Positions 20,627 to 56,456 of a stretch of DNA of 64,000 nucleotides are shown here, piece by piece (the stretch's first letter is position 1; every line of letters starts with the position of its first letter). The translations under genes were made by a program, and so were the position numbers. The notes below the pieces were generated by a model. The model made no database searches and was not told where the DNA came from. It saw only the letters and a list, made by a program, of their open reading frames with translations. The stretch spans positions 768,001-832,000 of the forward strand of contig OY970393.1 in NCBI GenBank assembly GCA_963720465.1, in the 5' to 3' direction. The DNA is from Methanobacteriota archaeon (GTDB lineage: Archaea; Halobacteriota; Bog-38; Methanoflorentales; Methanoflorentaceae).

Positions 20627-22024
20627 CTATCGTTTTCTCATGAGAATGTATATTGCTCCCACTACAAGCGCTGGTATGCCTAAGCCTAGGAGCGAGAACT
20701 CACCGACGGGCTGGGGCGGCAAACTCGCCACGCTACTCGTCTGTGCGCTCGCCTGTTCTGTCGGCACTGCAATTCCAGGCACCGAGGCATTCGTCGTGTC
20801 AGTTGTCACGGGAGCAAGCTGTGTTGCCTGTGGACTTGGCGTTGAAGCTGCTGTTACGACAGTTGGCTTTGCGGTTGCTGTTACGACCGTTGGCTTTGCG
20901 GTTGCTTTTACGACCGTTGGCTTTGCGGTTGCTACGACCGTTGGCTTTGCGGTTGCTTTTACGACCGTTGGCTTTGCGGTTGCTACGACCGTTGGCTTTG
21001 CGGTTGCTGTTACGACCGTTGGCTTTGCGGTTGCTACGACCGTTGGCTTTGCGGTTGCTTTTACGACCGTCGACTTTGCGGTTGCTGTTACGACAGTTGG
21101 CTTTGTGGTGGGAGTCTTTGCAACGAGCTTCTGCGTTGGCGTGGGCGTCACCTTAGGTGCGGGTGTAGCAGTCGGCTTGATGGTCGGCGTCGCGGTTGTC
21201 CATGCCAGTTTATCGGTGTTCCAGCTTCCACCACTGCTAAAATCAACGATCGAATTGTATTGCCGGTATACAAAGAAGCCGCCGTTGAGCCAGGCAGTCT
21301 TGACTGATGCGATGCTGTTCCCGTCTGAAGCCGTATTTCCGAGGTTCGCGCCGCCTACTGCGTCGTTGTACCACGATCCGGTTCCGCTAAGCGCGCCGCC
21401 AGTCTCGTCCCAATGGGTTTGATGCACAGGGGCGTTTCCGTCCTCACCGATCCAGACCGTCGGATATGGTTCGTGTCCCGGCCCTGCACTGGTGTCCCAC
21501 GAAATTTGAACGTAATAATTGTGGCCTGCGCGGAGTACGGTATCAGTTGGGATGTACCACCGCGCCCCGCTGCCGCCGGTCGTGGCGCGGTAGATCGTCA
21601 GTTCGCTGTGGCTGGCGCCGTAGTTGGTGTCAATTTCAATCATGAAACCGCCATACGCTTTGTCCCAAATTTTCTGGAAGCGCTGGCCGGGTACTACTCC
21701 GGCGAAATGAAACCCTATCTCCCACGAAACGACGTTCTGGTTGTTGGTTGCGGTGCCCGCCGGGATGCCGATAAAATCATTTTGCCCGATGGTACCCCAA
21801 TATGGGTAGCCGTTTGATTGGGTCTGAAATAAGCTGGGGGTGCTGACGTACGCGTTATAGCTGGTTCCTGCCGTTCCCTGGTTGACCCACGTTGATCCCG
21901 CTTGGGGGACGTAATATATCGTGGGGCTAGGCTGTGCTGCCACTAGGGTGGTTGTAACGCCTGTAAATAATACAGTAATGAGGAGGGTGACTACACAAAT
22001 TGAAACGATATTGTGTGCGCGCAT
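20627..22024 (-). CDS. secreted surface protein: beta-sandwich (LamG-like) domain, Thr/Ala/Lys/Pro repeat stalk, C-terminal membrane anchor
   Basis: Signal peptide; Trp/Tyr/Gly-rich domain; TAKPTVV repeats; VGEF-TM-RKR tail resembling archaeosortase PEF-CTERM. Confidence 0.8.
   Translation of the reverse strand: MRAHNIVSICVVTLLITVLFTGVTTTLVAAQPSPTIYYVPQAGSTWVNQGTAGTSYNAYVSTPSLFQTQSNGYPYWGTIGQNDFIGIPAGTATNNQNVVSWEIGFHFAGVVPGQRFQKIWDKAYGGFMIEIDTNYGASHSELTIYRATTGGSGARWYIPTDTVLRAGHNYYVQISWDTSAGPGHEPYPTVWIGEDGNAPVHQTHWDETGGALSGTGSWYNDAVGGANLGNTASDGNSIASVKTAWLNGGFFVYRQYNSIVDFSSGGSWNTDKLAWTTATPTIKPTATPAPKVTPTPTQKLVAKTPTTKPTVVTATAKSTVVKATAKPTVVATAKPTVVTATAKPTVVATAKPTVVKATAKPTVVATAKPTVVKATAKPTVVTATAKPTVVTAASTPSPQATQLAPVTTDTTNASVPGIAVPTEQASAQTSSVASLPPQPVGEFSLLGLGIPALVVGAIYILMRKR
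20850..21105. repeat. 24/27-bp tandem repeats encoding (T/K)ATAKPTVV, about 10 copies
   Basis: Repeated ACGACCGTTGGCTTTGCGGTTGCT units. Confidence 0.95.
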
Positions 22025-50999: not shown

Positions 51000-51608
51000 T
51001 TACGAATTTTCTCGGCCGCCGGTTTCCCTTGTTGTGCGGTTGGTCTTCGGATCTATCGCAAGCGCCTTGTCAAAACACTGAAGCGCCTCTTCGTGGCGGT
51101 CTAACATGTCAAGCGCGTCTCCTTTGTAGTTCCACGCGTCAACATCCTGCGGGTTTATCGCGAGCGCCTTGTCGAAGCACAGAAGCGCCTCTTGGTGGCG
51201 GTCTACTTTCACAAGCGCAGTTCCTTTGTCGTTCCACGCCTTAGCATACCGCGGGTCGAGCTCGAGCACCTTATCGAGGCACTGAAGCGCCTCTTCGTGG
51301 CGGTCTAACATCCCAAGCGTAGCTCCTTTCAGAGCCCACGCCTTAGCATCCTTCGGATCGATCTCGAGCGCCTTGTCGAGACACTGAAGTGCTTCTTCGT
51401 GGCGGTCTAACATCCCAAGCGTAGCTCCTTTCAGAGTCCACGCTAAAGCATATTGCGGATCTATCGCAAGCGCCTTGTCGAAGCACAGAAGCGCCTCTGG
51501 GTGGCGACCTGACTTTGCAAGTGCATCTCCTTTGTCACACCATTCCTTCGCTGTCAACTCTTTCTGCGTTGGGGCAGTGCTCGACTTGAACCTGTCAAAT
51601 AATCCCAT
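51000..51608 (-). CDS. tetratricopeptide repeat protein
   Basis: Five 34-aa repeats (AW..KG..L..LDRHEEALQCFDKALAIDP) with 102-bp DNA periodicity; start MGLFDRFK. Confidence 0.93.
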   Translation of the reverse strand: MGLFDRFKSSTAPTQKELTAKEWCDKGDALAKSGRHPEALLCFDKALAIDPQYALAWTLKGATLGMLDRHEEALQCLDKALEIDPKDAKAWALKGATLGMLDRHEEALQCLDKVLELDPRYAKAWNDKGTALVKVDRHQEALLCFDKALAINPQDVDAWNYKGDALDMLDRHEEALQCFDKALAIDPKTNRTTRETGGRENS

Positions 51609-51939
51609 GTTGGTCGCCCAGTACATCCACGCAGGCATATTTATAATTCCTCTTTGAATTGGCAACACTGGTAGCTCACTTGCCCTCTCGGCGGATCCTT
51701 TAGCTGCTTCGCTGGGCATAAGAGAGCTTGCGCTTGTTTTCGGTCGTCCGAAGCCCAAAAAATAAGATAGATTAAGAAGTTAGGGAGTTATCAGAAACTA
51801 CCTTAGCGTGCTCGTGGCGGCTTTAGTCATTTCTCAAATCGATCATTCGTAAACAGAAACGTCCTCACGTTTACGCTCCATTATATGCTTTCGTCTAGCG
51901 CACTGGCAGCCTAATCCCGAGGGGGTCGACTTGAACCAC

Positions 51940-52011
51940 ATCAGTACAGTATCTCTTCAGGAGAAGCAACACGACAAGGGTGATTACGCTAGAGGAGTAT
52001 TTTCAGGAAGG
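51940..52011 (+). promoter_or_regulatory. CRISPR leader-like sequence A
   Basis: 52/64 identity to 55547-55610; abuts a 37-nt repeat. Confidence 0.8.
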
Positions 52012-52493
52012 GTTGCTGAGCAACATCCACTAAAACAACGATTGAAACTTGAGGGAGACAAGGCGCACATTCTACGATTAGTAAAAGACTCTGGAATGTG
52101 GGCTCTTGAACTTGTGAGACAGGAGATACTTATATTTCGTCAACGAAGGATTAAATGCCGACGATCAATACAAAAAGTTGTGGGCAATGAGCCCTGGTTT
52201 AAAAAAGGCAACGCAATAAGACCTTGACAAATCGAAGAAGTAATAGCTGACTGTTACAAGCACTGCTGATTATGAAAGGTGAATAAATGAAAGAGAGGTT
52301 ATTAGAGGTTCTTGAATTGCTCGACCATGAGAAGGAAGACCTAGACCAACTTTGTACAGACGTTTCGTTCCCTGAAACGACGCTGGCACGTTCTGCTGCG
52401 ATGACCAATAGACGGGTGCGAGAGATCGTAGAAGAAGTTCTTGAAGGTATTGAGAATGAGTGAATAAATGTAGCGATGCTGCAAAGCAATATC
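52012..52493 (+). CRISPR. degenerate mini-array A: repeat (52012-52048), 429-bp insert, 5' half-repeat (52478-52493)
   Basis: GTTGCTGAGCAACATCCACTAAAACAACGATTGAAAC; GCTGCAAAGCAATATC matches 14/16 to 56088-56103. Confidence 0.75.
52287..52463 (+). CDS. small acidic protein (58 aa) inside CRISPR insert A
   Basis: MKERLLEVLELLDHEKEDLDQLCTDVSFPETTLARSAAMTNRRVREIVEEVLEGIENE*; AGGTGA RBS and TAAATG coupling. Confidence 0.7.
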   Translation: MKERLLEVLELLDHEKEDLDQLCTDVSFPETTLARSAAMTNRRVREIVEEVLEGIENE

Positions 52494-52513
52494 GTGGTTG
52501 TTTACGAGAAAAC

Positions 52514-52917: not shown

Positions 52918-54163
52918 CTAATTAACGGTGATCGTCAGGGCTGCGCTCGTCGATGCCTTGTACCACGTGTCACCGGTGAAGGTGGCGTAGTATAGACGTT
53001 TGCCGGGTGATGTCCACTTCTGTGTGAACGTGACCTTGCCGCTCGCGTTCGTCGTTTTCGTCACAACGTTGTAGCGGACGCCGTTAAGGTAGTGGTAGAT
53101 AGTGACTGACTCCGACGATAAGGGCGTCGTGCTCCCCCTGAGGCTGGCGGTGAAGGTGACCCGCTGATTGACAGTGGCGGTGGTGGTGGATGGGGTGAGG
53201 GTCAGCGCGGTGGGAAGTCTGGATGACGTTTGCGCTAGGGATGACGTTTGTGCTGAACTAGTTGGTGGATACTCAACCTGTAGATTTGCGACTATCTGTG
53301 GGAATCCTAGGTGCTCATAGTCGCTGAGCACGTGGGAATCCTGGCTACACCACACGCAAAACTGCGTGAAGCCGACCCCATTTGCGTAGGACCAGTCGAG
53401 CATTGACTTATAACTGGGCGAGCCGCCGCTTAGGGAGTTTGCGAGAACCGGGTTGTCGCCCCCGCTGTTGGCCCACAGGCCTGCCATGATGCCGTTCTGG
53501 ATGCCACGCGCAGCGGCCTGTGTTACTCCCTGTTGAACAGAGGACCACTCCGGCGTATAGTAGCTCTCCCAGCTGTTGATGACAGTGAATGGGTTCTTGT
53601 ACACGTCGAGCCAAAGGCCGCACTGGTCGCAATTGTAGTTTACGTATCCCTTGAAAAACTGCTTCATGTAACGTAAGATCACCCGGTCTGCCCCCTTCGG
53701 AGGCAACATATTGCCACCCGGCGTTTTTGAGTGATTGAAAGTAGGGACCGAAACTGGTTATGGGGGTGCTCTGAAGTCGTCCTCCGCTCCAAATGACCGC
53801 TTCAACATCAATAACCGGCTGCATGCCAAGCGCTTTGATCGTATTGAGCTCGGTCTGGTATGTTCCGCTATCTGGAGCTATAAGTTCCACGGTGGAGAAC
53901 CCGTGTGCCTTAAAATAGGCAAGTGAGCCAGAGTCTATCATCGATGGCGGACCCGCGATAGCGTACCCTATCGGGTGCGTCGCGGCTCCTACCGCAGGGC
54001 TCACGTTAGTTGCGCTTGACGCTGGACTCGCGGCATTTACCGTCGCTGCCGTGAGAGAGAACAAAACCGTAGCCAGAACTAAAAGAGTCATGAATTTTCC
54101 AGCACGCTGACTCCGACTGTGCGTGCGGATGCCCGTTTTTCTATGTAGGACTAACTTGTTCAT
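52918..54163 (-). pseudogene. secreted glycoside-hydrolase-like protein with C-terminal Ig-like domain, +1 frameshift near 53670
   Basis: Signal peptide and N-terminal half in ORF 53408-54196; the rest in ORF 52918-53709; one extra base at GATCTTACG-T-TACATG. Confidence 0.75.
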
Positions 54164-54289
54164 GGGTATCTCTTGCGAAAGAAGCTGCATCTGCAAATGA
54201 GGCGCTTATAATGGATATGACTAAAGAAAATGGGACGATTTTGTATGCGCGCATAACTTTCTCGCAAGAGCTTAGACACTAGGCACCTA

Positions 54290-54622: not shown

Positions 54623-55357
54623 ATGGATGAAACTTTCGGAATGCCGATGCAATCAGCGCTGCTGACAATCGACTACAAACCGTGCGGCGCCGACGTACCG
54701 TCCAACCTGCAAGATGGTGCGCATAGTAGCTTCGTCGATAAAAACCGCTTAAACGAAGAAGATCTGCTCATTGTCGTCATGAGTCTCTTGCGGCCGGTTA
54801 CCTATGCGCGCCAAGAAACCGTGTTTGGAGAGAACAAAGAGAGAAATTGGCGCGCCTGCTTTGCTGTAGATGGGCTAACTCACGGGGGGTTTGTCGAAGG
54901 TTTTCGTGTCCTTCAATTCCTAGGAACGGTTATTAACTACTTCAGCGACGCTACCGTTATGAACTTGACTGGCCCCACGCCCGCAAAAGAACACAGAGTA
55001 AAGGATTGGGCCCTTTTCCTCGGCGACAACAATATACTATTCTCTCCTTTCGGTACTTTTGGGGTTGTTGACCATCGGCCGTATCATGACTCAATTTTTT
55101 GCACAATAGAGTTTTACACCGAACGACGACCAAACGAACTGGCGCGTTTTATCCTCGACTGGTTAAAGCCAGGCGTTGGAGAGGGGTGGGTGGCGTTCGA
55201 TTGCCTGACACCTGACGATGAAGTAAAAGCGCGGGAAAGGGTTGAGCAATTAGATCGACAGCTCGCGAGTTTGGGTTATAAGAGCATGACTTTTGATACG
55301 GAGACGCGCAACTTATGGCTGGAAAGAAAACGAGGCAACAAGCACGGGACGAAATAA
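54623..55357 (+). CDS. hypothetical protein (true start may be ATG 54779)
   Basis: Long ORF with protein-like composition. Confidence 0.65.
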   Translation: MDETFGMPMQSALLTIDYKPCGADVPSNLQDGAHSSFVDKNRLNEEDLLIVVMSLLRPVTYARQETVFGENKERNWRACFAVDGLTHGGFVEGFRVLQFLGTVINYFSDATVMNLTGPTPAKEHRVKDWALFLGDNNILFSPFGTFGVVDHRPYHDSIFCTIEFYTERRPNELARFILDWLKPGVGEGWVAFDCLTPDDEVKARERVEQLDRQLASLGYKSMTFDTETRNLWLERKRGNKHGTK

Positions 55358-55546: not shown

Positions 55547-55619
55547 ATCAATATGGTATCTCTTCTGCAACAGCAACATGACAAGGGTTATGACGCTAAA
55601 GGGGTATTTTGACGGTGGG
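55547..55619 (+). promoter_or_regulatory. CRISPR leader-like sequence B with BRE/TATA-like GACAAGGGTTATGA
   Basis: Homologous to leader A; TTATGA at 55588-55593, about 27-32 nt before the repeat. Confidence 0.8.
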
Positions 55620-56107
55620 GTTGCAGAGCAACATCCACAAAAACAAGAATTGAAACCGAGCGAGATAAAAAACATAAGGGTGGTTCGACAGCTGTGACGG
55701 AAGCAATAGATTGGTTTAAGGTTAGGATGTGGGAGCTAAAGAAGCTGCTTCGTGGTTCCGAATACAATACCGTGCACGACGAGTTTGGGGGCGAAGTTAT
55801 CGCTGACCTCACCGAATGGCTTAAGATGAAAGGAGCAGCGAAGTTCCATAATAACCTCAATCCCGTGGTTGCTATCACAAAGAACGACGATGTGATATTC
55901 CTCCAAGACTTCGAAGAAGCTCCTACAGACCGGAGCAAAGCGATTATTCACCTTGACGGGCTCTATGCGTTTATAAAAGAAAAGGCGTCCGAAGATAGCT
56001 AAATCCACAGTTGTGACGTTGCAAAGCAGCATCCACTGAAACTTCTATTGAAACTGCACTTAGATACAATAACGGCTGGAAAAATAAGTTGCACAGCAAT
56101 ATCCACT
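55620..56107 (+). CRISPR. degenerate mini-array B: repeat (55620-55656), 361-bp insert, repeat (56018-56054), 33-nt spacer, truncated repeat (56088-56107)
   Basis: GTTGCAGAGCAACATCCACAAAAACAAGAATTGAAAC; GTTGCAAAGCAGCATCCACTGAAACTTCTATTGAAAC; GTTGCACAGCAATATCCACT. Confidence 0.85.
55694..56002 (+). CDS. hypothetical acidic protein (102 aa) inside CRISPR insert B
   Basis: The ORF fills the insert; AGGGTGG SD-like sequence before the GTG; the frame is also open back to the repeat. Confidence 0.7.
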   Translation: MTEAIDWFKVRMWELKKLLRGSEYNTVHDEFGGEVIADLTEWLKMKGAAKFHNNLNPVVAITKNDDVIFLQDFEEAPTDRSKAIIHLDGLYAFIKEKASEDS

Positions 56108-56456
56108 TTTTCATATTCGTGCCCCTCGTGAAATGCAGATTGCCTGAAGACCCCTATTTGACGTGAAATGCCGCTGACATCATCACGCTTTTGTAGCGGC
56201 TTAAAAAATCAAAGGAAATCGAAAAAAGAAAGACCTATTGAGCTCTGAGAGGCAAAAGGGTATATCTGCTGGGCGCTGTGGAATTGTCAAGAGGAACGTG
56301 CCGTGCTATCCTTCGATGACCTCTGCCGACGTTGCCGACTCATTAACGACCAGCCAGCAGCTTTGTAGCACATCATCGGGCGTAAGTGAACGCCCCCGAG
56401 TTTTCCGCTACGAAAGTTTATCGGTGAGCAATGTAAAACTGATATGAGGATATAAC

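Follow-up and report, generated by a model that had tools for sequence, protein, structure and literature searches.

Organization of the mini-array and its surroundings

The stretch of DNA analyzed here comprises 64,000 nucleotides (hereafter the window) and belongs to the genome (G000) of an uncultured peat archaeon, which consists of a single contig of 2.31 Mb. It carries a small CRISPR array in which a leader and a 37-nt repeat (R1) are followed by an insert of 361 bp, a degenerate second repeat (R2), a spacer and a truncated third repeat (R3). The slots of this mini-array differ widely in length, with 361 bp in the first and 33 nt in the second. A first-pass annotation had described all of these elements and they were found exactly where it had placed them. 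Re-reading also agrees with its description of a sense-strand open reading frame (ORF102) that fills the insert, encodes 102 aa from a GTG at 55694, is preceded by a Shine-Dalgarno (SD)-like motif and stops 15 nt short of R2. What had been overlooked is the age of the structure and a second unit 3.6 kb upstream (51940-52513), consisting of a leader, a repeat, a gene for a protein of 58 aa (ORF58) and a degenerate repeat. The features of the region are as follows, with all coordinates referring to the window.

51000..51758, reverse strand: gene for a TPR-repeat protein (Pfam TPR_1, E 3e-48)
51940..52011, forward strand: leader A of about 72 nt, with homology to leader B and the leaders of real arrays (pairwise alignment)
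52012..52048, forward strand: repeat A, 37 nt, CRISPR-DR7-type (RF01320, 37.8 bits), 33/37 identical to R1
52287..52463, forward strand: ORF58, gene for a conserved acidic 58-aa protein with an SD motif upstream (dN/dS 0.20)
52477..52513, forward strand: degenerate repeat, 13 nt past the ORF58 stop (alignment of ORF58 loci)
55560..55619, forward strand: leader B, conserved part, mean pairwise identity 0.79; homology between species begins here
55620..55656, forward strand: R1, 37-nt CRISPR repeat (Rfam RF01320, CRISPR-DR7, 37.9 bits)
55657-56017, forward strand: insert between R1 and R2, 361 bp (sequence reading)
55657..55693, forward strand: 5' untranslated stretch, 37 nt, conserved at 0.81
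55678-55684, forward strand: SD-like motif of ORF102, 9 nt upstream of the GTG
55694..56002, forward strand: ORF102, gene for a conserved acidic 102-aa protein (dN/dS, homologues)
56018..56054, forward strand: R2, degenerate repeat, identical to R1 at 29/37 positions
56055..56087, forward strand: fixed spacer, 33 nt, conserved at 0.79 among four species
56088..56107, forward strand: R3, truncated terminal repeat, about 20 nt (sequence reading and repeat-pattern scan)
56108..56200, forward strand: array trailer, common to ORF58 loci of other species

The repeats had been taken for true CRISPR repeats, and this is corroborated by R1, which like repeat A reaches the gathering score (37) of the Rfam family CRISPR-DR7; R2 stays below it. 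With up to three mismatches allowed, the window contains four copies of the 5'-terminal 19 nt of the repeat, as compared to 0.01 copies expected from 100 shuffles. Leader B is homologous to the leaders of real arrays and, together with R1, shares 78% identity over 79 nt with the leader and first repeat of an array of 16 repeats in genome G021. When leaders are compared side by side, neither A nor B contains the canonical TATA-like motif that precedes real arrays by about 100 nt, and a promoter role of the leader is therefore an assumption. Leader and repeats are nevertheless derived from a genuine array of type I-B style.

ORF102 and its product

ORF102 exhibits a median dN/dS of 0.14 (Nei-Gojobori; nine sequences and 36 pairs, one of which is identical), in line with the earlier view that a whole gene on the sense strand occupies the insert. 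By this measure, ORF102 is a real gene under purifying selection. Translation starts with GTG in the window and with ATG in all eight orthologues, 33-38 nt past R1 and with the SD motif kept. In total, 49 close homologues were found. Public entries of the protein (P0002, P0004 etc.) often comprise 125-143 aa, many of them 131 instead of 102 aa, because the frame extends without a stop into R1 and part of the leader. In many entries the R1 repeat is concealed within the annotated coding sequence.

Profile searches retrieved about ten distant homologues (P0051-P0060) of 84-103 aa and 31-41% identity. No such homologue outside the genus came up in metagenomes (two scans), in viral sequences (one scan) or among 401 genomes of the phylum, and a cluster look-up for the distant homologues returned no names. 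Searches of Pfam, PHROGs and PADLOC gave nothing for ORF102, ORF58 and ORF244, a further ORF located directly upstream of leader B, and the protein atlas contains no usable match for ORF102. An AlphaFold prediction for ORF102 made with eight close sequences was poor (pLDDT 55), and addition of the distant homologues yielded a model with a pLDDT of 87 and a pTM of 0.78. When this model was submitted to Foldseek, no hit at E ≤0.001 was obtained, the best values being E 3.3 for the PDB and E 0.75 for the viral models in BFVD. ORF102 represents a new protein family without family or fold match in Pfam, PHROGs, PDB and BFVD. The protein is acidic with a pI of 5.0, and one might guess that it serves as a defence- or conflict-related accessory protein.

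The sole data from RNA libraries are contigs of a relative with about 88% identity. One of them, 1245 nt in length, extends from inside ORF102 through R2 and the spacer into R3; this contig shows neither strand nor ends nor RNA origin.

Conservation, age and decay of the unit

The comparison set consisted of 24 species genomes of the class, representing one family and two genera. In a DNA search of these 24 genomes, eight other species of the same genus proved to carry the leader-R1-ORF unit, with 84-89% identity. Misassembly, which had been named as a concern, is excluded by the recurrence of the unit in these eight separately listed genomes. In one of them, G010, a second copy of the unit is present that is 75% identical, contains a frameshifted ORF and has retained a diverged leader and R1.

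Mean pairwise identities were calculated for each segment over eight species, leaving aside the pseudogene and one coding sequence that duplicated another. They amount to 0.39 for the 60 nt before the leader, 0.79 for the leader, 0.86 for R1 (0.90 for its 3' half), 0.81 for the 5' untranslated region and 0.90 for the coding sequence, with 0.81 at third codon positions. The step from 0.39 to 0.79 indicates that homology begins at the leader. Leader and untranslated region evolve no slower than third codon positions and selection on both is thus not demonstrated, and R1 appears to be at most mildly constrained. In the four species in which they can be compared, R2, spacer and R3 are identical at 0.84, 0.79 and 0.77, respectively, versus 0.84 at third codon positions in the same genomes. 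Across nine species, R2 is present in four, truncated in four and absent in one, and the set of R2, spacer and R3 has been lost in five of the nine. By their rate of change, R2, spacer and R3 are relics that decay near the neutral rate. Spacer turnover between related genomes is absent, with one spacer common to four species at 0.79 identity. The gene had originally been regarded as the occupant of the newest, leader-proximal slot. That view has to be given up, as the unit is common to nine species and R2, spacer and R3 are conserved relics without turnover. Going by this distribution, the insert is old and inherited and not a new spacer.

A second gene behind a leader and a repeat

ORF58 shows a gene-then-repeat layout like that of ORF102. 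In the window, a stretch of 428 bp after repeat A contains the 58 codons of ORF58 and then the degenerate repeat. A DNA search found the ORF58 region in 11 of the 24 genomes of the class, all from one genus, and 13 loci were aligned, with the partial loci L037 and L041 left out. The median dN/dS is 0.20 for 11 sequences, one variant of 59 codons and one with a non-start first codon having been dropped. The encoded protein has a pI of 4.4, and its matches in the protein atlas are confined to unnamed clusters. In seven of the 13 loci, a 19-nt repeat-like stretch (≤5 mismatches) begins 13-17 nt past the ORF58 stop; the repeat behind ORF58 in G000 itself exceeds the threshold of five mismatches, and one additional locus features a full-length repeat after the stop. 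In loci L030, L031, L032 and L035, ORF58 is followed by a truncated repeat and a trailer matching R3 and the trailer of the window. A leader and a repeat upstream of ORF58 are present only in G000 and its closest relative G023.

Chromosomal context

The TPR gene adjoins the ORF102 unit in seven loci and marks a conserved chromosomal site. Six loci from other species have the unit placed between the TPR gene on one side and a pair of conserved genes, one of them TFE-like, on the other. The arrangement in G000 and G023 is a different one and reads TPR gene, leader A-repeat A, ORF58, about 3 kb with other genes and leader B-R1-ORF102, with another 3.6 kb separating the ORF102 unit from the conserved genes. 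A copy of leader and repeat is found at both ends of 3.6 kb of extra DNA in these two genomes, and the DNA that immediately precedes leader A corresponds to the DNA ahead of the ORF102 leader in loci L007 and L008. Recombination at the leader-repeat copies would best explain this arrangement. ORF58 and ORF102 differ in their relative positions between species and have the terminal repeat and trailer in common. G009 and the pseudogene copy in G010 share a different context with ordinary transporter and regulator genes. These comparisons make it evident that the leader-R1-gene unit has undergone at least one event of copying or relocation as a whole. For three genomes lacking ORF102, a flanking gene was found; synteny is broken in one of them and the contigs end in the other two. 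A Pfam scan of 19 neighbouring proteins revealed neither an integrase nor a recombinase.

Some further features of the window deserve mention. ORF244 (54623-55357, forward strand), encoding 244 aa, is present only in the closest relative besides G000. On the reverse strand, a gene for a secreted Ig-like (Big_3_5) protein is split into overlapping ORFs of 263 and 262 aa (52918-54196). It is a single ORF of 425 aa in the closest relative (L056) and thus probably frameshifted in G000. A tandem array of 24/27-nt units in about 9-10 copies is located at 20801-21109.

The type I-B system of the host and the distribution of cas genes

A candidate for the cognate cas locus, which the first-pass annotation had suggested to look for, is present in G000. 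A complete type I-B operon comprising cas8b, cas7 (Csh2), cas5, cas3, cas6b, cas1, cas2 and cas4 (about 2,072,900-2,081,400 in the genome) is located directly upstream of the main array, which has 59 identical 37-nt repeats and lies 1.26 Mb from the mini-array at genome position 823,620. The repeat of the main array is identical to R1 in 31/37 positions including the final 8 nt, and its leader ends in a motif common to leaders A and B. The main array has 58 spacers, 55 of which measure 33-39 nt. The oversize spacers of 124, 83 and 65 nt sit between perfect repeats (G000:C1:2081815-2081938, 2082047-2082129 and 2085668-2085732, respectively). The spacers of the main array gave no meaningful match in G000 or in the fetched loci. 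As to the fixed 33-nt spacer of the mini-array, its first 12-14 nt have no match elsewhere in G000 and no partial match was found nearby. Its only full-length match in this genome (25/33; G000:C1:302279-302311) is situated inside an ORF of 486 aa; by a rough estimate, about 0.006 such matches would be expected by chance in G000, and the differences are not synonymous.

Among the 24 genomes, the Cas6b C-domain and Csh2-type Cas7 were each found in one (G000), cas1 in two (G000 and G003) and type III RAMPs in none. The eight other carriers of the unit, most of them incomplete metagenome-assembled genomes, did not yield any match for Cas6b, Csh2 or cas1, and the general Cas6 model had no match in five chosen genomes. 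G018 and G002 are single contigs with an estimated completeness of 90% and 91%. In G002, a cas3 fragment is located right beside one array (G002:C1:1521312-1521566), pointing at cas loss and not original absence as the likely history. ORF102 is under selection also in genomes without a detected Cascade or Cas6b gene.

Gene-sized inserts in other arrays

Rfam CRISPR-DR7 repeats are present in 16 of the 24 genomes. This census relies on the Rfam model instead of a repeat pattern, for which single matches at three mismatches remained at the level of a reversed-pattern control. Gene-sized inserts between repeats, which the first-pass annotation had proposed to look for in related genomes, do recur in other arrays of the lineage, namely in G002 and G001. 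The single-contig genome of G002 contains 34 CRISPR-DR7 matches spread over many separate loci, and no cas1, Cas6b, Csh2 or RAMP gene was found in it. Its first locus starts with three repeats and two spacers, followed by a 271-bp insert with an ORF of 67 codons featuring a CxxC...CxxC motif, a repeat-spacer-repeat unit, a 424-bp insert with an ORF of 123 codons and another repeat-spacer-repeat unit. In the second locus, five identical repeats are accompanied by a 268-bp insert with a hydrophobic ORF of 33 codons, and the third contains a gap of 297 bp. An array in G001 has inserts of 224 and 554 bp with hydrophobic ORFs of 59 and 57 codons, and at another locus of this genome a two-repeat unit is followed 24 nt on by a hydrophobic ORF of 32 codons with a strong SD motif. 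In G003, a three-repeat unit precedes a lipoprotein-like frame. A candidate start codon 35 nt past the last repeat in locus L017 had to be rejected as the codon is GTA.

Arrays with normal spacers in the sister genus thus also contain inserts of 224-554 bp with sense-strand ORFs. Altogether, nine sense-strand ORFs, most of them SD-preceded, occupy inter- or post-repeat slots of six loci and two more were noted elsewhere; these ORFs were picked by eye and only those on the sense strand were scored. Three inserts of G002 have no relatives among five genomes of its genus, a search with the 123-codon ORF returned only itself, and donor sequences of inserts were not found. Among the array-embedded ORFs, only ORF102 and ORF58 are proven genes.

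Solitary CRISPR-DR7 repeats were observed 55-56 nt upstream of a gene start in loci L093 and L097 of G002 and L106 of G003, where the repeat lies inside a conserved upstream region of 110 nt. The gene comprises 267 codons in two of the loci, is cut short at 69 in the third and by eye seems to resemble a SAM-methyltransferase.

Origin and nature of the unit

We consider the structure to be an orphan mini-array, the relic of a CRISPR array, which occupies a conserved site in the chromosome of an uncultured archaeal genus. Its first slot is taken by the selected gene ORF102 and the leader-R1 segment now heads a resident gene; we assign this reading a probability of roughly 0.6. Like orphan or degenerate type I-B arrays, the mini-array combines a homologous leader with 37-nt repeats that carry the 8-nt tag found in the I-B array of the host, contains a single 33-nt spacer of normal length and closes with a truncated terminal repeat. 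It differs from them in that the first slot is a selected gene of 361 bp, that spacer turnover is absent and that most carriers are without match to the cas genes searched for. The gene may have entered the ancestral array through integration of an over-long fragment by Cas1-Cas2-Cas4 or through recombination at the repeats. Over-long integration by Cas1 is a possible origin, made plausible by the spacers of 65-124 nt in the active array, and the common terminal repeat and trailer together with the duplicated leader-repeat lend plausibility to recombination at repeats. The leader-R1 segment would now act as promoter and 5' region of ORF102. In G000 only, where Cas6b is present, this enzyme may process the transcript by cutting every repeat 8 nt ahead of its end; R1 and repeat A have each changed next to the Cas6b cut site and R2 is more degenerate. 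The best reading of the inserts in related genomes is that of a lineage in which arrays repeatedly gain genes.

The first-pass annotation went further and proposed an integron-like platform. Spelled out as a rival reading, the arrays of the lineage would actively capture gene-sized DNA by means of the adaptation machinery or repeat-to-repeat exchange, the leader would drive expression and Cas6b would cut the transcript into single-gene mRNAs. The part of it that concerns recurrent gene-sized inserts in the lineage stands: sense-strand ORFs, picked by eye as stated above, occupy slots in six loci, the 268-nt insert of G002 is enclosed by five identical repeats, and the active array of G000 contains oversize spacers. 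Furthermore, two unrelated conserved genes, ORF102 and ORF58, each end 13-17 nt before a repeat, one terminal repeat and trailer is found behind different genes in different species, and copies of leader and repeat bound the 3.6 kb of extra DNA in G000 and G023. The resemblance to integron cassette arrays extends to short ORFs in one orientation that are possibly promoterless, lie downstream of a single platform sequence and are each closely trailed by a recombination-prone repeat; here, however, the repeats are CRISPR repeats, and neither an integrase (19 neighbours scanned) nor attC sites accompany them. The part that concerns ongoing exchange fares less well: no cassette occurs at two places in otherwise identical form, no recombinase is encoded among the scanned neighbours, the ORF102 unit is a fixed feature of the genus, cas1 is present in just two of 24 genomes and the G002 inserts have no relatives. 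We therefore regard an active platform as a tentative and rather improbable option. The same holds for the broader notion that arrays of the class double as sites of gene capture and expression, and that useful genes such as ORF102 and ORF58 outlive cas and leave behind leader-repeat-gene units dispersed in genomes devoid of cas genes; it is conceivable, with the odds clearly against it.

An origin from an integrated virus or plasmid with a mini-array, in which ORF102 would be an anti-CRISPR or superinfection-exclusion gene, might be read from the small size and acidity of the ORF102 and ORF58 proteins and from the mini-arrays and solitary repeats that viruses are known to carry, as described in the available part of PMC10651486. 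These viral mini-arrays and solitary repeat units (RNA anti-CRISPRs) likewise have few repeats and no adjacent cas genes. The unit studied here differs from them in being chromosomal, syntenic, vertically inherited and equipped with a protein gene. A decayed virus, one of the alternatives originally offered, receives no support, in view of the lack of any PHROG match and of conserved synteny with housekeeping genes (TPR, TFE-like); PADLOC gave no match either, a scan of viral contigs with the alignment of distant homologues detected no relative and no integrase is encoded among the scanned neighbours. Such an origin is very improbable.

Slightly less probable still is a module similar to CreTA or crRNA-like RNAs, in which a guide made from R2-spacer-R3 would enable Cascade to keep a toxin (the product of ORF102 or of a different gene) repressed and would thereby guard the cas genes. 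With its degenerate repeats, the architecture recalls regulatory mini-arrays as described in the accessible text of PMC10120712. Like CreA of CreTA and crRNA-like RNAs, the mini-array has two such repeats flanking a single fixed spacer that lies apart from any normal array, and several of the small array-embedded ORFs of relatives are hydrophobic and toxin-like. Unlike in these systems, the unit lies outside the cas locus, 1.26 Mb from the operon, the gene is positioned between the repeats and not beside them, and a partially matching promoter target was not found near the spacer, the only genomic match (25/33) falling into a coding region. R2, spacer and R3 are about neutral and have been lost in five of nine species. 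A Cascade-guarded toxin is unlikely, since the gene is kept, under purifying selection, in genomes without Cascade match and the spacer is without nearby target.

Chance resemblance or an assembly artefact, for which only the degeneracy of R2 and R3 could be adduced, is virtually discounted by the shuffle control, the Rfam score and the presence of the unit in eight other genomes.

Implications

As far as the available portions of the sources go, neither regulatory mini-arrays (PMC10120712) nor viral solitary repeats (PMC10651486) nor orphan arrays have a conserved protein gene in the place of a spacer. Our literature search, with partial coverage, did not turn up any description of a protein gene located between CRISPR repeats. 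Units of this kind are invisible in standard annotation because gene callers read through R1 and array finders miss two to three degenerate repeats.

In the usual view, CRISPR arrays serve to store short non-coding memories. That a selected gene has stayed between repeats throughout the history of a genus indicates that arrays can be a source or home of genes, and the recurrent gene-sized, sense-oriented inserts in arrays of the lineage point to the same role, hinting at an ability of CRISPR arrays to acquire genes and carry them along. If capture were achieved by the adaptation machinery, it would link spacer integration by Cas1 to the casposon-like integration of long DNA and would mean that the use of CRISPR integrases for gene insertion has a precedent in nature.
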